From contig BCGN01000012.1 in assembly GCA_001599295.1 (NCBI GenBank), forward strand, positions 304,865 to 324,864: a stretch of DNA of 20,000 nt. Direction: 5' to 3'. Under the pieces are notes generated by a model. That model did no database searches. It was not told the origin of the DNA and was given only the letters and a program-made list of their open reading frames with translations. The translations under genes were made by a program, and so were the position numbers. Positions 1-19,370 of this stretch are shown piece after piece. The DNA is from Sporopachydermia quercuum. Taxonomy: Eukaryota. Each line of letters begins with the position of its first letter. Position 1 is the stretch's first letter.

Positions 1-1624
1 ATAAGATTCTGCTCATCCCTAGAAACAGTAGAAGCGTCAGAACAGATAGTAGAAGCGTTACTGGAATGATTGGGCTGATCCTTGGAATGTTGCTTGCAGA
101 GGAGCATTTCCATTCTTGATGAATGAGTGTTTTTGCTGTTATTTTCACCGTTCTTACTGATTGTGTGATCGCTATTACTATTTTCTCTTGGAATGATACT
201 ACTGTTACATTCTGCTTTTGATATAGCACTGTTGATAAATGCTAGCATCACTTCATAAGGCTACAAAATGTTAGTAAAACCCTCTGTTGAACGATTTCCC
301 TTACAAATCCATTTGATACTGTCAAAATATCTGCAGTGAATGAAATATTTGTCCTATAATATCTCAGAACTGAATCCGTATCCCTGTGATAATGTAGAGA
401 ATTTATTACGTACGAATGATTTCTCATAGAATACTTTAACTCTTGCCGATTGCACGTTCTGAAGGAACGTTTCTATAGACGAATTCAACGAGGAATAAAC
501 AGGAAGAATGTTCTTGAGTTTCTATGATAGTTAAAACACATTATTGTTAGATGTTGCCTGTTCAGGCTTAATCATATGTCTGCCGAACAATTGTCCAGCA
601 TTTTGACCAGTGAAGCATACTTCTCTCACTATTGGATCGAAACCTACTGGAGATGCAACCGACAATGAGTGGATTACATTATTGAGACAGGTGTTCACAT
701 TCTCTAAAAATTTGCTTATAGTTTCTTTGGAATATGTTGAATCTGGCATGATTTTTTGGGAGTTGCTAACAATGGCAGTAGCATGGTTGCTTGTGTGAAT
801 TGTATGGTGACTGAAATCTTCATTATCTTCAACCCAAATATCAGCTTCAGTTAAAGTGATTGTGTTTCTACCGCTGTAAGATATATAATGAAGAATTTCT
901 GGGTATCTACTCAATAAGTTGCATGATAATAATACTAAATAATATAGTTAGATGTCATTTGATCGAGCGGCGGTAGCTTCACTACTTTTGAAATGCTTGG
1001 AACTGGGAGAATTACTTGTTATTTGTTGATTGCCACAGCAAATGCATCTGCTATCTGACAAGATTTGAGCTCTGTACTGTATGGTGCTCCATTGCTATAA
1101 GAAACTGGTTAAATAATGACTAATCAGGCTGATACCAAATAGTAACATGGTACTCAACTATGGGAAGACTTTTCTTTTTTTGCACCTTATGCCTTATATG
1201 AACAATGAATGAAGTACGTACTTTCACATTTGACAAAGCTTTCACCAATTGGCTTATCAAATGAATCCTATGAATTTTGTCATAGTTTTTAAGTATGAAA
1301 TGCAGATTGATCTGATTTTAGTATTAGTAACGTTCTGTTCTTCTCAAACGAATGTGCAAGAACTAACTTCCAAATAAAAAAATAAAAAAATAAACTTGAT
1401 AGGCCATTTATGGTTCAGCTCTCCTGTATAGTAATTCTATATATGGCACTTACTGGGAAGCATTGCTTTGGTAGAATGATTGATTGGTCATCGCCTGATG
1501 GTGTGTCAGACTGTTTTTCAGACGCGTCTTCGGAAGAGTTGAGATTTCCTTCAGTTTGATACAATTTTGATCTCCATTCATAACGCAAACAGTTGTAGGT
1601 TGAACTGCCCCTGAGATGCTCCAT
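1..1624 (-). CDS. REC102: Multi-exon gene, probable Rec102 / TopoVIB-like meiotic double-strand-break protein. Exons 1624-1454, 1311-1222, 1094-1016, 934-621, 521-414, 260-<1; runs off the window
   Basis: Five GT..AG introns with branch-point-like motifs, all phase-compatible (0,0,1,0,0), give a stop-free frame of >=340 aa: MEHLRG...LPKQCFP|INLHFILKNYDKIHRIHLISQLVKALSNVK|QWSTIQYRAQILSDSRCICCGNQQIT|ILLSCNLLSRYPEIL...SLSVASPVGFDPIVRE|KLKNILPVYSSLNSSIETFLQNV...EKSF|PYEVMLAF... Blocks are collinear with S. cerevisiae Rec102 as recalled (IKLNF, FWEEQLFYQVQ, ILSLKCTIL, QLEFEYPMVFSMISRLRLK). It lies downstream of NMA1 on the same strand, as NMA1/YLR328W and REC102/YLR329W do in S. cerevisiae. Confidence 0.75.
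261..413 (-). other. Spliceosomal intron 5 of the REC102-like gene (153 nt)
   Basis: Donor GTACGT, canonical branch TACTAAC (276-270), acceptor TAG; phase 0. Confidence 0.8.
522..620 (-). other. Spliceosomal intron 4 of the REC102-like gene (99 nt)
   Basis: Donor GTATGC, branch ATCTAAC (552-546), acceptor TAG; phase 0; removes the stop that ends ORF 531..914. Confidence 0.8.
935..1015 (-). other. Spliceosomal intron 3 of the REC102-like gene (81 nt)
   Basis: Donor GTAATT, branch ATCTAAC (953-947), acceptor TAG; phase 1 on both sides; contains an in-frame TAA. Confidence 0.75.
1095..1221 (-). other. Spliceosomal intron 2 of the REC102-like gene (127 nt)
   Basis: Donor GTACGT, weak branch (TTTAAC or CCTGAT), acceptor TAG; phase 0. 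Confidence 0.75.
1312..1453 (-). other. Spliceosomal intron 1 of the REC102-like gene (142 nt)
   Basis: Donor GTAAGT, branch TACTAAT (1329-1323), acceptor CAG; phase 0. Confidence 0.85.
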
Positions 1625-2605: not shown

Positions 2606-3340
2606 ATGCATAGAGGACCTATAAAACCATTGCAATTGAGAATACCCAGTTATATACAAGATAGACCTCTCATATTCCCCAAATCTCCTACAACACATCT
2701 TCCGTATCCGAAGAATATAGATAGAACGACATTCAACAGCGAAGTGTTCAACAAAAGTGTGTATCGAAGACTCTTAAGATTAACAAACGCTATATGTAAA
2801 AGTGAACTACACGTTTGGGTATATCATAATCTGATAAGGAGAAGGTTTGAAGAGGACTATGAAACAAGGAGAAAGTTTTATTTCCCTGATAGAGAAGAGC
2901 AGGATAGGATAAATGAGCAACAGGAAAGTGGTCACCACGAACAAATTGCTCTGTCAGCATACGAAAATAACATTATAAGTATTTGGAGGACATTGGAGTT
3001 TGTCAACAAAGCATGTGCCTTCAATGAAAAAGAATCAAAGCTTGCTGATTATAGAGTAAAACTGAGTGATGGTGAGGTAATGTTCAATCCAATAGAAAGA
3101 ACTATCTTACACAACATTTTATTTAATGAGTGGAGTAGAATTCATAATTCCAGAGCAACTGTTACGGAGGAAGATGTGGCTTCCGTAGTGAAAACCCTAT
3201 TAAATGACAATTTTAATGTTGACTTAAAACAAATGAAGCGAAATAAACGAAAGTTTGAAACTTATACAAGGGCTATAAATTATATTACATTTGAAAGAAA
3301 TTTGATCTCACTGAATGACAGTTTATCTTTAAGACTTTAA
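2606..3340 (+). CDS. IRC19: Irc19/Rrg4-family mitochondrial protein (244 aa)
   Basis: Intact ORF. YRRLLRL, RRRFEEDYETRR, RTLEFVNKAC, ILHNIL and the C-terminal FERNLISLNDSLSLRL match recalled S. cerevisiae Irc19 (YRRFMRL, RYKFMKENYELKR, RTLEFVLKSC, ILKNLL, FDTTLIYLNETLGTRL). Confidence 0.82.
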   Translation: MHRGPIKPLQLRIPSYIQDRPLIFPKSPTTHLPYPKNIDRTTFNSEVFNKSVYRRLLRLTNAICKSELHVWVYHNLIRRRFEEDYETRRKFYFPDREEQDRINEQQESGHHEQIALSAYENNIISIWRTLEFVNKACAFNEKESKLADYRVKLSDGEVMFNPIERTILHNILFNEWSRIHNSRATVTEEDVASVVKTLLNDNFNVDLKQMKRNKRKFETYTRAINYITFERNLISLNDSLSLRL

Positions 3341-3611: not shown

Positions 3612-4949
3612 TCAATCCATCCCATTTTTCATCACCTCTTTGACGGGCTCGGATCCTCCAATATAAAGACCATTATCTTGTATATACCTTATAACACTAT
3701 TGGGCAAAAGGTATTGAACGGACATGCCTCGTCTGATAAACAACCTTGCCTTGGTTGAGGAAATATCATTATATATTAACTGTTTGATCACTAACACATT
3801 TCTGCTGTGTTCATACATGATATCATGCGACAGTATAAAATTACGAACGTCAGTTCCTGTTCGCTCCACAATAAGACATCCATATCTTCCTAGTATATGA
3901 TGCAAATCATCTTCTGCCCATACATTGGGCTCACCCATAGATTCAATCAAATCCCCTCCTGCTAGCAACATTATTTTTACTCCTCTTGAAGCTCCAGATT
4001 TTAATTGTACTCCACCCCTTTTAACATTAATCTCTTCATTAAAATGGTCCAATACTAATGCTGTTCTAGTATATGTTAGCTGCAGAGATTCCCATGCATC
4101 AACCATAAGCCAGGAGCTTGTTCTCTCACATGCCAGTTCACACATTCTGACTCTATGATAAGCTGGTGCTAATCCTGGCTTTTTATAGTTATCAGACACA
4201 GGGGAATAGTAACCCCCGATAACTTCAAACCTTGTATATTCACGAATAGAATCCATTGCCATTTCGAACATCCGTAAATGTAAGTATGTAATTGGTGAAA
4301 ATGATCCACAAGCTACTATAACCAATGGCAGCTTACTCTCATCCACCATAGTATTCACTAATCGATGAGTCGGAAACTTATATTCTTCCATTGATCTTCC
4401 TTGTCTTTGAATGCCATGAGGAACTTCTTCCAAATCAGCAGTAAGACCAACAGGGGGAACGTATTCTCCAACATGGTTTTTAAGTCTGGCTATTTGATAG
4501 GGTGAGCTTTGGGTGCTAATTGATTGTTGGTTTTCGTTTGCGTTATGGTTCTCATTCTGATTATCACTTTCAGAACCTGAATCCTCATCAGATGACATCA
4601 ATGGATTGAACATTTCATTGGATACTGGTATAGAGTTACTTATATAGCGACTTTTCGTATTGGTAGTAATATCACCACCACTTGTCCCTGTAGTGATAGA
4701 GGAAGATGATGCATTGCTGTGAAATAGGTTTGGGCCTGTTCTTTGCTTAGAGTGGCTCAATCTATGAGCTCTGCGGGAAATTGATTTCTTCTCTGCCGCT
4801 GTTGGTGGAGCGTCAATGGCATTGTTATCATCTTCTAAAACATACGGCTGTATAGGTGCTATGTTAGGTATCAGATATGAAGGTGTCCTTGGTAGTTTGA
4901 CGTCAGCCCTATTAGCGGGTTTGAAATTTGGGTCAAGTTTCGGATCCAT
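3612..4949 (-). CDS. NMA1: Nicotinamide/nicotinate mononucleotide adenylyltransferase (445 aa)
   Basis: GSFSPITYLHLRMFE (HIGH-like), VDAWES, LAGGDLIESM and DISST motifs; the N-terminus MDPKLDPNFKP is typical of yeast Nma1/Nma2. Confidence 0.97.
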   Translation of the reverse strand: MDPKLDPNFKPANRADVKLPRTPSYLIPNIAPIQPYVLEDDNNAIDAPPTAAEKKSISRRAHRLSHSKQRTGPNLFHSNASSSSITTGTSGGDITTNTKSRYISNSIPVSNEMFNPLMSSDEDSGSESDNQNENHNANENQQSISTQSSPYQIARLKNHVGEYVPPVGLTADLEEVPHGIQRQGRSMEEYKFPTHRLVNTMVDESKLPLVIVACGSFSPITYLHLRMFEMAMDSIREYTRFEVIGGYYSPVSDNYKKPGLAPAYHRVRMCELACERTSSWLMVDAWESLQLTYTRTALVLDHFNEEINVKRGGVQLKSGASRGVKIMLLAGGDLIESMGEPNVWAEDDLHHILGRYGCLIVERTGTDVRNFILSHDIMYEHSRNVLVIKQLIYNDISSTKARLFIRRGMSVQYLLPNSVIRYIQDNGLYIGGSEPVKEVMKNGMD

Positions 4950-10611: not shown

Positions 10612-12222
10612 TTAATAAGTTTTAAGCTTAAGATGACCAGCAGGAATTGATCTTAAATGTTTTCCTTTCCACTGTAAAGGTAATAAGATAGCAAAAAATG
10701 CAAATGCACAAATAATTGCTTGAGTAGAAAAACTCCATTTGGGTCCTACAGCAGCCGACCAATCAACTTGAACATAACTAATGGTGAAGCCACTTATAGT
10801 TCTCCACCAAATCAAAATACCATTAACCTCTGTAGAAGCTTTAGGATAAGCATCAAGGCANTAAGCGAAAATAGCAGAAGTAACAATCATGACACCAACC
10901 AGTAATAAAAACCAACCCAAAGCTAAAATAACCCAATGATAGAGATACTGAAAAGAATAGCCAATTATTACTAAACCTGCAATATGACCTGCAATACCAA
11001 TCCAACAAGCCCAAAGACGAACTTCTGGCTCGAAATGTCCTTGATGTCTCTTAATGTACGCCTTGGCTACCCAATCGTTGAAGAAATGCCCAAAGACGTG
11101 ACCAACAAAAGCACCAATCATAGGAGTTAAATAAAATAACGAGTAGTCATTGTTAGAGAAACCATAGCCAACTGGCCTTGGAGGTAAAACAAACATAGCC
11201 AAAGTAACGTTGATTCCAACAGTCCAGCAGAAAGTTAACATATAAAAAGCTGAAGCAACGCAAATGACTGGCATCTTCTGAACAGCTGGGAGTCTCATCA
11301 AAGCAGTGTACAAACTGTTTCTCAAATGTCTTGATCTCCATTGGGCAATTCCAATCAACCTTTCAAATCTGGTTCCTCTGTCAGGTTGTTTCTCTAAAGG
11401 AATTGTCCGATCGTAATAAGTTTCATCCCCTAAGAAAATAACCAAAGCGAAAGCAATACCTGTCATAATTGTACAGATTCCAAATGTCCATCTCCAATTA
11501 CCAGTACCACTAAGAATGAATCCGCCTAAAAATGGACCGAAATATGGAGAGAAAATAATACAAACTTCCCACAAGTTAATTGCTCTAGCATGATCATGGA
11601 AGAAGAAAATATCCTTAATAAACATAAGACCACAGCATTGAACACTAGTTGAAAAAGTACCATTGAGGATTCTTGCAGCTAAGAAATGGTTGAAATCTGG
11701 GGCAACTGTGCAGTAAATAATGGTGGCTAATGATAAGAAAAAAGTCCAGAAAACAACAGGAAGTCTACCAAAATAAGCAGAAACTTGACAGGCTAAGACA
11801 CCACCAGCACCCAACATGAAAACGTTACCACTACTAGCTCTACTAACATGTGAAGCAGTTAGATTCCATTCAGCTGATTGAGCTTCTAAGATAGCACCAC
11901 CAATTCCTGAGCAGAAATCAGGAATAAAAGAGGTGTAACAAACCATTAGCATAACAGCAGCTTTCTTGCTGGTGCTCCAATTTAAAGGATCATTTGGATC
12001 ATCAGATGGTTGAGGAATAAGAACTGTTTTACCATCACGAGCAACTTTCAATTGAGTGTTGTCACCTAAAAATTGAGCATCGACAATTAATTCATCGGGG
12101 TTGGTTTCGTCTTCAATAACTTCGTCAGCAGCATTCGATGAGATGTCAGATCTTTCAAGATCTTTTCTATCAACGTTTTCAACCTGCTCCACCAGGATGT
12201 TCTTATCCGAAGAAAAATCCAT
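10612..12222 (-). CDS. MFS transporter, Hol1-like/DHA1-related (536 aa); one ambiguous base at 10861
   Basis: N-terminal LIPQPSDDPNDPLNWS, FGRLPV, WRWTF, DETYYDR, FEPEVRLW and AxCLDAYP motifs; about 12 TM segments. Confidence 0.9.
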   Translation of the reverse strand: MDFSSDKNILVEQVENVDRKDLERSDISSNAADEVIEDETNPDELIVDAQFLGDNTQLKVARDGKTVLIPQPSDDPNDPLNWSTSKKAAVMLMVCYTSFIPDFCSGIGGAILEAQSAEWNLTASHVSRASSGNVFMLGAGGVLACQVSAYFGRLPVVFWTFFLSLATIIYCTVAPDFNHFLAARILNGTFSTSVQCCGLMFIKDIFFFHDHARAINLWEVCIIFSPYFGPFLGGFILSGTGNWRWTFGICTIMTGIAFALVIFLGDETYYDRTIPLEKQPDRGTRFERLIGIAQWRSRHLRNSLYTALMRLPAVQKMPVICVASAFYMLTFCWTVGINVTLAMFVLPPRPVGYGFSNNDYSLFYLTPMIGAFVGHVFGHFFNDWVAKAYIKRHQGHFEPEVRLWACWIGIAGHIAGLVIIGYSFQYLYHWVILALGWFLLLVGVMIVTSAIFAXCLDAYPKASTEVNGILIWWRTISGFTISYVQVDWSAAVGPKWSFSTQAIICAFAFFAILLPLQWKGKHLRSIPAGHLKLKTY

Positions 12223-15421: not shown

Positions 15422-17942
15422 ATGACAAGCGTTGAACCAATTCTCAGTGATAATTTTCCTGTTGAGTCAAACTCAAGTATCTCCTCAGACAAACATCCCT
15501 TTGAATGGCAGAAGGATAAACCATTGGCTGAGGTACTTCCTTTAGATTTGAAAACAGAAGATAATTTTGTTCCTAGAGATGAAAGAATTGTTGACCGATT
15601 CACACCCATTGAATTGTGAACCACCATCTCCATTGTTTCACTCTTATGGATTTATTACCCCATCAAGCCTTCATTATGTCAGAACGCATGGTTCTCCTAT
15701 TGATATCAAGGGGGATGAGCTTTTAGACTGGACTATCTCAGTAGAAGGTATGGTGGAAGAACTATTTTCTGTAACCTTGAGAGATCTTATTAGGGAGTTT
15801 CGTCAATATACAGGTCCTGTGACTCTATACTGTGCAGGTTACAGAAGAACGAAACAGAATGTAGTAGCAAAAGGTAATGGCTTTAATTGGCATCAGAACG
15901 CTGTCTCTGACTCATTATGGACAGGCCGGTTACTAAAGAATGGCATAGATAGGGCTAACCCTTAGAAAGAAGAAAAGTTTGTTTGTATGGAGGATGGTGA
16001 TAAGCCTACTAAAGGTCCATACGGAACATCAATTTCTATGGTTGATGTTAAAAATTCTGAGAGAAATTTTATGCTTGCTTATAATCAAAACGGGATCTAT
16101 CTTCCTGATGATCAAGGAAGACCTCTAAGAGTTGTTATTCCAGGAATGATTGGTGGTCTATCAGTTAAATGGTTGAAACGACTAATTGTTTCAGATGTTC
16201 AATCAACTGACTGGTATCATTATTATGGTAACAAAGTTCTTTCTACATGGTTACACCAGAGATAACAACAAACGAAGATCATTGGTGGAAAGACGAAAGT
16301 TATACACTTTTACAATTTGAATGGTCAATCAATAACAGCACACCCCGTTCAAAATGAGAGATTGATTGCTAACGAACAAAATGAAAGCGAGTACTACGAA
16401 GTTGAAGGCTTTGCCTACAATGGTGGAGGGAGAAAAGTCAGCAGGATTGAATTATCATTAGATAGAGGTAGGACATGGAAATTAGTAGACATTGGTTATC
16501 CTGAAGACAGTTATCGGTAGGCTGGACCAGTTGAATTGCTCGGTGGTACAGTAAATGTTTATCAATGGAAATCCTATCTCTACTGGAGTTTTTGGTCAAT
16601 TGAGGTAGTTCAAAAGGAGCTGAAATCTGCCAAAGATATCTTTGTCAGAGGTATGGATACACCCATGAGGACCTATCCAAGAGATATATACTGTAATGTA
16701 ATATCGATGTTGAACAATTGGTGGTATAGAGTTGCAATTCAAAAAGGAGATTAGCCAGTCGAACCAAATTTGAGCACCTGTGTCAGCCATCAAAGTTGAT
16801 GGTTGGATGACAGAGAGAGTCAAGAAAAAAGGTGAGGATTTACTAGATCATACTTGGGATAAAGATAATGAAGATCCAAATAAGCCAAAGGTCAAGAAGG
16901 TTTATGTTGATGAAGACTTACTACTAATGGTTGATTCTAACAAGAAAGACAAGATTATCTCCAAAGAAGAATCTGCCAAGCGTGCTACTCCTGACGATCC
17001 ATGGTTTATCATCAAAGGTCATGTATTTGAAGGTAAAGACTTCTTGCATGTACATCCTGGTGGAGAAGAAGCTATTGGCAACATGGTTGGTGAGGATGTC
17101 ACTGACGAATTTTTTTGCGATTCATTCTCAGAACACCAAGAAGCTCATCAGGAAATTTTATATGGGCAAATATGAAGGAGCCAATGATAGTCCTTTAGAA
17201 ATTGATGGGCACAGAGCACCTTCTATTATTGAGAAGATTCCTACACTGTTCGATCCAAAGAAGTGGAAGAGACTTACTTTGATTGAGAAGCGTATTATAT
17301 CTCCAGATTGCAGAGTATTGTATTCGCATTAGAACACCCTGATCAAAAGTCTGGTTTACTTGTTAGCAAACATTTCTACTTGAGAGCTAAAGGGTTAGGT
17401 GAAAAACTTGTCATGAGAACGTATACACCAAAATCAGGTAATAAAGTGAAAGGTACTTTTGAAGTTTCAATGAAGATTTATTTTCCCAGAGATGAAAAAT
17501 ACCAGGTGGTAAGATGACAATGGCTATGGAAAATATGCCAATTGGTTCACAAGTTGAAACCAAAGTTCCAGTTAGTGAGTTTGAATAACACCTTGTTATC
17601 AAGTTATTGCTGATATTTTTTCTAACGAGGATGATGGTACTAAAATACGCTTCTTCTATACCAATAAATCAGAAGCTGATATTTTATGTAGAGATGAGTT
17701 GGATGAGTTCACAACAAGAAAAAATGCTAATCTAAACATTGACATTGCGTCAGTAAAGCAACTGAAGGATGAAAAGGGTTTGTTGGTAGATTGAATAAAC
17801 CTATGTTTGATAAATACTTGGAAGAGAAAAAGAGCATTGGTGAATTCTTGGTTGTGGTGTGCCGTCCACGCGGTATGTATAAAGGAGTTCAGTCCTTACT
17901 TGATGAAGCAGGTATTGATCCTTCAAGAACCGTTTCTTCTAA
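15422..17942 (+). pseudogene. YNR1: Nitrate reductase pseudogene with Moco, cytochrome b5 and FAD/NAD(P)H domains
   Basis: Collinear fragments DLKTEDNFVPRD, SLHYVRTHG, CAGYRRTKQN, GRPLRVVIPGMIGG, AYNGGGRK, SMLNNWWYRVAI, HPGG...AIHS, RTYTP, CRPRGM. In-frame stops at 15963, 16518, 16752 and 17770, roughly nine frameshifts, and a deletion near 17587. Confidence 0.95.
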
Positions 17943-18448: not shown

Positions 18449-19370
18449 CTAATTAGAGCCATAAGACAGTATCTCCTTCGCTATTTTACTCCTAGATAGT
18501 TCACCCTTCTTATTCGATAATGTTCCTATCGCTTTTTGAGTTTCAACACGCAGTTTGGTCACCTGCATCAACACAGGCGCATCTGATATTATCAGGTTTC
18601 GTTGTATGGTAGAGACGTGTCGGGGAACACCCTGACTACTAGATTCATCAGTAGACTTTTCCTGGTCCAGTTCCGTAAGTCGACTATTGGCTGCTGAAGT
18701 TGATGAATTAATAAATAAAGTACTGTTGAGTTGCTTATAGTATTCTAGTTTCTCTCTCAATACTAGAATCCTCCGCCGATACTTCATTAATGCTTCATAT
18801 TGCTGTTGATATTCTTCCATTTGTTGGTCGTAATTATCATCCAAATAATCATTCTTATCATCTTCGATCTCTTTGCTCACCAGAACCTTTATAGCCCCAG
18901 GTTTTGGTAAATCTGGTATAAATTCAAGGAGAATATCCCATTGGCCTAGGGTCTTTGTATCAAGGCTCTGTTGAAGCAAAACCTTGAAGAATGTCAAATT
19001 GAAAACTGACTTCAATGGAGATAGTGATTTTATACCTTCTAGTCTTCTAAAGGAATCTCCTAATGTCTGCTCATGATAAGACAATACTTGTAATGTCAAG
19101 ATGTGAATAGCTTGAGAAGAGTAATGTCGATGTCTGTGCTTTCTCAGCAATGAAACAACTAATAGTGTTAGCACCCTTGAAAATCAATAATGGAGGAGAA
19201 TTATAAGTGTTTCTAAAACAAAATAACATACTTTTGTTTCTTACAGTTCTCAATTGCTTATCAGTTATTCTAGTACGGTGAGGAGCTTTCAGCTTCGGTA
19301 ATTCAGAAACTGATTTAACCTGGCGCAATAGAAACTGCTTGACATCTTTATAAGTACTTTCGTTTCCCAT
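18449..19370 (-). CDS. Fta4/Nkp1-like inner kinetochore (Sim4/Ctf19 complex) subunit; exons 19370-19232 and 19158-18449; 282 aa
   Basis: Splicing joins ORFs 19071..19370 and 18449..19174 in frame (VRNK-I-VSLLRKH). KQFLLRQV, HYSSQAIH, a coiled coil and IQRNLIISDAPV resemble the recalled Fta4 family pattern. Confidence 0.72.
19159..19231 (-). other. Spliceosomal intron (73 nt)
   Basis: Canonical GTATGT donor, TGCTAAC branch (19173-19167), TAG acceptor; phase 1 restores the frame. Confidence 0.92.

Follow-up and report, generated by a model that had tools for sequence, protein, structure and literature searches.

A six-exon gene beside an NMN adenylyltransferase gene in a long-branched yeast lineage: a candidate Rec102

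The first 1624 positions of the window, by which we mean the whole stretch of 20,000 nucleotides analyzed here, contain on the minus strand what is very probably a real protein-coding budding-yeast gene with predicted splice junctions. When rebuilt from the coordinates, its six exons, joined over five GT-AG introns, give 1022 nt and 340 codons with no stop. Its product, fast-evolving and no shorter than 340 residues, comes from a poorly sampled and long-branched lineage, and the gene lies downstream of a gene for an NMN adenylyltransferase (NMNAT) of the NMA1/NMA2 type. We put the identification of this protein as an orthologue of Rec102, which a first-pass annotation of the same DNA had proposed, close to an even chance. 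That the gene is real but its product is not related to Rec102, being a lineage-specific protein or some other fast-evolving one, is a substantial possibility that itself falls short of even.

Results

Exon-intron structure and coding potential

The exons and introns of the candidate gene are listed together with other features of the window in Table 1. The start codon, in the context ATAATGG, is the first ATG past an in-frame stop at positions 1664-1666, and the exons start in phases 0,0,0,1,0,0. In the introns, the distance from the branch A to the CAG or TAG acceptor is 10-14 nt, except in intron 4, where it is 25 or 9 nt. Retention of any of the five introns introduces an in-frame stop, which ends the ORF. 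The spliced frame is still open at position 1, the edge of the window, and the stop codon lies beyond it; public contigs extend about 17 kb past this position. Three sets of DNA contigs are identical to the window over positions 1-2600, with no variants. Five of the six introns visible in the window belong to the candidate gene.

Table 1. Coordinates of the candidate gene and of other features in the window. For introns, the donor, the branch-like motif and the acceptor are given in this order.
Feature	Positions	Strand	Size	Description
Exon 6	1-260	minus	260 nt	Open at the window edge; Ser/Asn-rich tail after about 20 residues
Intron 5	261-413	minus	153 nt	GTACGT...TACTAAC...TAG
Exon 5	414-521	minus	108 nt, 36 codons	
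Intron 4	522-620	minus	99 nt	GTATGC...ATCTAAC (or TTTTAAC)...TAG
Exon 4	621-934	minus	314 nt, 104 residues	Largest exon; no homologue found
Intron 3	935-1015	minus	81 nt	GTAATT (weak donor)...ATCTAAC...TAG
Exon 3	1016-1094	minus	79 nt	Phase 1 at its end; carries the codon for W89
Intron 2	1095-1221	minus	127 nt	GTACGT...ATTTAAC...TAG
Exon 2	1222-1311	minus	90 nt, 30 codons	
Intron 1	1312-1453	minus	142 nt	GTAAGT...TACTAAT...CAG; codon score non-coding
Exon 1	1454-1624	minus	171 nt, 57 codons	ATG at 1624; codon score +0.153 in the model frame
244-codon ORF	2606-3340	plus	244 codons	Coding-like codon usage
NMNAT (NMA1/NMA2 type)	3612-4949	minus		Pfam CTP_transf_like, 2.2e-17; Atlas 0.98 to fungal NMNAT clusters
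Nitrate reductase relic	15552-17514	plus		Pfam order Oxidored_molyb, Mo-co_dimer, Cyt-b5, FAD_binding_6
Fta4/CENP-50-type kinetochore gene	18449-19370	minus		Pfam FTA4, 3.6e-10, match from profile position 54

The model was recovered by a splice search that was blind to it. The search accepted donors of the form GTA[ACT][GT][CT] and required a [CT]TAA[CT] motif 5-40 nt upstream of an AG. Up to five introns were permitted, each 50-300 nt long, and the longest frame beginning at an ATG was returned. On the minus strand of positions 1-1700, the output was exactly the set of exons in the first-pass annotation. In 300 dinucleotide shuffles of this segment, the frame returned averaged 208 nt (sd 68) and was at most 500 nt long, so that none attained 1022 nt. 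Among 44 tiles of 1700 nt, searched on both strands, the only others to reach this length were three long unspliced ORFs, and a gain of more than 600 nt through splicing was obtained for the candidate's tile only (from 248 to 1022 nt); the second-largest gain, from 371 to 848 nt, was at the Fta4-like gene.

To measure the coding signal, five other ORFs in the window were used to train a codon log-likelihood. The model frame scores best in all six exons, though by a slight margin in exon 3 (79 nt). Over the spliced coding sequence, the score is +0.118 bits per codon, as compared to -0.23 and -0.41 in the other two frames, while every frame of the pooled introns scores below zero (-0.25, -0.33 and -0.18). 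The score of the candidate is close to those of the 244-codon ORF (+0.112) and the Fta4-like gene (+0.123), both of which are members of the training set. The locus thus displays GT-AG introns with branch motifs and consistent phases; its frame is open once spliced, and only the exons carry a coding signal. These are the features of a spliceosomal gene. The five-intron gene proposed in the first-pass annotation, with its branch motifs, its matching phases and its start at position 1624, is borne out on each of these points.

It is very improbable that the locus is no working gene, being instead a decaying relic that still splices open or a run of chance splice-like signals: the exon-intron junctions are predictions from the sequence, two donors (GTAATT and GTATGC) are weak, exon 3 is barely best in its frame and a clearly decayed nitrate reductase relic is present in the same window, but no shuffle came within half of the observed length, the geometry of donor, branch and acceptor is consistent in all five introns, and the coding signal resembles that of other genes in the window over 340 codons that lack both stops and frameshifts.

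The NMNAT gene and its neighborhood

Going upstream from the candidate, the next gene on its strand encodes an NMNAT, which provides an anchor for synteny. Its product is 56-63% identical over the full length to named NMA1/NMA2 proteins across many yeast families. A single ORF of 244 codons on the opposite strand lies between this gene and the candidate; it matched no Pfam family, and no homologue was found in a word-based protein search. REC102 of Saccharomyces cerevisiae is YLR329W, and one study presents it as paired with YLR328W, with a deacetylation site located between the two (PMC1079824). YLR328W is the NMN adenylyltransferase gene, according to a title cited in PMC12470169, and is NMA1 by the source name "NMA2 (YGR010W) and NMA1 (YLR328W)". 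The candidate thus has an NMA1-type NMNAT gene as its neighbor on the same strand, which matches the adjacency of NMA1 and REC102 in S. cerevisiae. This neighbor was not used in the first-pass annotation and therefore represents independent support; we estimate that about 0.1-0.2% of wrong guesses would land no more than two genes away from the orthologue of either neighbor of REC102. The other neighbor of REC102 in S. cerevisiae is CHS5, and the corresponding far side of the candidate is located beyond the window.

We also examined the surroundings of NMNAT genes in 17 metagenome loci, of which 10 had a readable flank. The downstream gene was for an aconitase in six of these, a PALP-family enzyme in two, and Gpi1 and a permease in one each. 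No relative of the candidate and no other gene shared with the window was present in the readable flanks of the 10 loci, and a tblastn search with the spliced protein against all 17 gave a best E-value of 0.73. Gene order around the NMNAT gene is unstable among yeasts.

Two metagenome yeast contigs, L130 (1779-5223) and L131 (8159-9355), carry the NMNAT gene followed by the gene for the PALP-family enzyme, the assignment in L131 being made from its equal length (399 codons). Next to the PALP-family gene, L130 has an ORF of 652 codons that belongs to no family. This arrangement resembles the order NMA2-YGR012W-SNU71 of S. cerevisiae. Outside the Saccharomycetaceae, conservation of gene order with S. 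cerevisiae should be rare on long branches.

The longest end branch in a quick tree of 41 yeast NMNAT proteins is that of the window protein (1.01), which falls outside the groups of Saccharomycetaceae, Phaffomycetaceae, CUG yeasts and Pichiaceae, and is placed loosely and unsurely with Trichomonascus, Sugiyamaella, Yarrowia and Nadsonia (SH-aLRT 82, drawn open). Given this branch, and with the protein about equally far from every yeast family in the sample, the source lineage seems to be poorly sampled or fast-evolving.

Residues and motifs compared with Rec102

A structural description of Rec102 (PMC11746154; PDB entries 8URU and 8URQ contain the protein) provides landmarks against which the candidate can be compared. 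In that account, Rec102 has a six-stranded sheet, made up of strands A-D and two others, the first strands of which come mostly from exon 1, and W91 (motif W91EEQ), which ends the short helices after strand D, is called "nearly invariant in eukaryotes". Strand C covers S147-F156, the switch loop has eight residues, the kinked stalk begins at I165, and the C-terminal extension begins at D231, from which a length of 264 residues is derived. The same text indicates that REC102 has at least two exons, and that a homologue in Sordaria macrospora, found by BLAST, is mis-spliced in the public annotation (PMC11746154).

The candidate contains only three tryptophans, at residues 17, 89 and 147, and exon 3 has W89 in second place. 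This tryptophan lies 2 residues off the position of W91 in Rec102, a coincidence that by our arithmetic would occur by chance in about 4% of cases, the pairing being one that no significant alignment anchors. In the first-pass annotation, the Rec102 identity rested on five blocks in which the candidate was placed alongside Rec102. Since the Rec102 residues printed in PMC11746154 agree with these blocks at every overlap, the Rec102 side of the blocks seems to be sound.

The printed residues were also mapped onto the candidate by offset. At an offset of +20, which is that of the last proposed block, the nine printed residues not used for the blocks score 5 (BLOSUM62; fixed-offset shuffle p about 0.02), and D231/K232/S233 of Rec102 face E/K/S in the candidate. 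With the offset left free, the residue map is not significant (maximum-over-offsets shuffle p 0.91); the offset of +20 ties for the best on the full set of 12 residues, and on the nine independent ones some seven others score higher.

A scan of the region upstream of the candidate for URS1, MSE and Mer1-enhancer motifs recovered none, and the lineage's own regulators may differ. The hexamer CGGCGG, which is the core of the URS1/Ume6 site, has its only copy near the candidate at 968 on the plus strand, inside intron 3. Two copies only, at 968 and 18778, are present in the 20-kb window, and GGCGGC is absent throughout.

Searches for relatives in sequence and structure

The homology and fold tests were mostly performed exon by exon and therefore had low power. 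Three of the five proposed Rec102 blocks straddle exon junctions, which handicaps such searches. Moreover, known members of the Rec102/Top6B-like family are connected through profile and fold methods alone, and the exon-wise negatives therefore carry little weight.

A phmmer search of PDB sequences (E<=10), in a set that may omit 8URU and 8URQ, matched none of the six exons to Rec102 or Top6B. The matches obtained were unrelated proteins, two for exon 1, three for exon 2, seven for exon 3 and one for exon 5, with none for exons 4 and 6. In Pfam, which includes a Topo VI-B transducer family, no exon reached the cut-off of any family.

Exon 4 was searched most extensively. A word-based search among longer proteins gave 51 candidates, none of which was related, and there was no usable match in the Atlas and none in the metagenome contigs scanned. 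A full HMMER search against 1.84 billion representatives gave a single match, a probably bacterial protein of 2053 residues (P0001) with an ice-binding-like domain in Pfam and many tandem repeats, each of which matches a 26-residue strand-turn-strand motif. With all repeats matching this one motif, the similarity was judged to be spurious. The AlphaFold2 model of exon 4 alone, made without an alignment, has a mean pLDDT of 38.8, which is too low for use; it contains a helix at residues 69-92, predicted with low confidence.

Exact look-ups of four proteins from the window recovered none of them in a collection of 15 billion proteins. The whole genome is therefore unannotated in this collection, and being hidden is not special to the candidate.

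Other genes in the window

The relic of an assimilatory nitrate reductase gene is interrupted in frame by four stops (TAG, TAA, TAG, TAG) and by one or more frameshifts, and is a pseudogene. A variant genetic code over 15552-17514 was ruled out, since the stop types are mixed and the confident genes in the window end in TGA, TAA and TAG. The Fta4-type gene probably has a first exon of 46 codons, followed by a 73-nt intron at 19231-19159 (GTATGT...TGCTAAC...TAG); this first exon alone has no match in Pfam. A single N is present at 10861, inside the second gene for an MFS transporter (10612-12222, minus strand).

Discussion

In the explanation that we consider best, which builds on what was observed here of the gene's splicing pattern, its coding signal and its NMNAT neighbor, the fast-evolving protein encoded by the candidate would be Rec102, a Top6B-transducer-like partner of Spo11. 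The N-terminal third, encoded by exons 1-4, would build a beta-sheet with the tryptophan W89 buried behind it, and the helices of exons 4-6 would form a kinked stalk, backing the sheet, and a hairpin that grips Spo11, as family members do through a helical hairpin and an extension at the C-terminus. The complex with Spo11 would then make the DNA double-strand breaks of meiosis. The first-pass annotation drew from this reading that the Spo11 core complex, and with it meiotic potential, may be retained in this yeast.

In favor of Rec102 we count the NMNAT neighbor, the correspondence of W89 to W91, the residue score at the fixed offset, and the way in which both the introns and the absence of detectable homologues fit the family. 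Counted against it are the lack of any exon-wise match to the family, the residue map at free offset, the length of the protein, the absence of the upstream motifs, the intervening ORF, the flanks of the metagenome loci and the long branch. Our estimate for Rec102, a little under even, sets the low prior expected of a conserved adjacency against the tiny chance that a guess made independently from the sequence would fall next to NMA1.

If the protein is instead unrelated to Rec102, coincidence accounts for the NMNAT adjacency and for the W89/W91 match, and the proposed blocks are chance similarities. The single-exon queries, with no match in sequence, profile or structure to Rec102 or Top6B, and the unremarkable score of the residue map at free offset are what such a protein would give. 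The 244-codon ORF next to the candidate is also without a detectable homologue, and orphan-looking genes may thus be common in this lineage, which in the case of the source yeast sits on a long branch; the neighborhoods of NMNAT genes, moreover, vary among yeasts. However, a guess made from the sequence alone must then have fallen by chance beside the orthologue of REC102's own neighbor, and a tryptophan must have fallen by chance within 2 residues of W91.

Compared with Rec102 of S. cerevisiae (YLR329W; 8URU, 8URQ), the candidate likewise lies downstream of an NMNAT gene on the same strand, contains introns and encodes a fast-evolving protein with a tryptophan about 90 residues from the start. 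In both, a part rich in beta-branched and hydrophobic residues at the N-terminus is followed by helix-prone segments, according to a low-confidence prediction for the candidate. Unlike REC102, the candidate has five introns, as compared to at least one, an opposite-strand ORF between itself and the NMNAT gene, and no URS1 upstream. The protein has no sequence similarity to Rec102 that could be detected exon by exon; with at least 340 residues versus 264, it is at least 76 residues longer, and it carries about 20 extra residues at the would-be switch loop as well as the Ser/Asn-rich tail.

More distant comparisons can be made with the Top6BL/TOPOVIBL proteins of mouse and plants and with the forms in Schizosaccharomyces pombe and Drosophila that lack the GHKL part. 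If the candidate is Rec102, it would be another transducer-only form, as in yeast. In contrast to the GHKL-bearing Top6BL proteins, no GHKL-like part is present upstream of its ATG in the contiguous frame, which is closed by the stop at 1664-1666. The likeness to the transducer of archaeal Top6B (2ZBK, 2Q2E) concerns only the proposed architecture of beta-sheet, tryptophan motif and stalk helix; in contrast to that transducer, the six exons fall below every Pfam cut-off, and the WKxY motif would be kept only at the W. The mis-spliced homologue in S. macrospora is a precedent (PMC11746154) for family members that are lost or truncated through wrong intron calls. Unlike that homologue, which BLAST could find, the candidate has no relative at the level of BLAST or HMMER.

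A more specific version of the Rec102 reading is that the protein is a Rec102-type partner of Spo11, in a deep and poorly sampled budding-yeast lineage, whose gene has remained beside NMA1 ever since that lineage and Saccharomyces diverged, and that the five introns act as a splicing gate restricting the protein to meiosis. This reading, which we regard as unlikely, invokes the unusual load of five introns and the two weak donors. A gene with six exons and five introns is an outlier among budding yeasts, and the Mer1-type introns of S. cerevisiae, whose splicing is limited to meiosis, are the model for such a gate.

Whatever its identity, the candidate shows that annotation based on ORFs misses six-exon genes. 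Should it not encode Rec102, it would be an orphan gene like many others, with little interest beyond itself. The partners of Spo11 evolve so fast that sequence surveys often score them as absent, and such absences are then read as a loss of meiosis. If the candidate is Rec102, it would add to the known family a new member, from a lineage in which searches by sequence would overlook it, and it would provide a very diverged sequence with which to define what a transducer-like subunit truly conserves. It would then also mean that the core complex has been retained in a distant yeast lineage, as recognized through gene order combined with intron-aware modelling.
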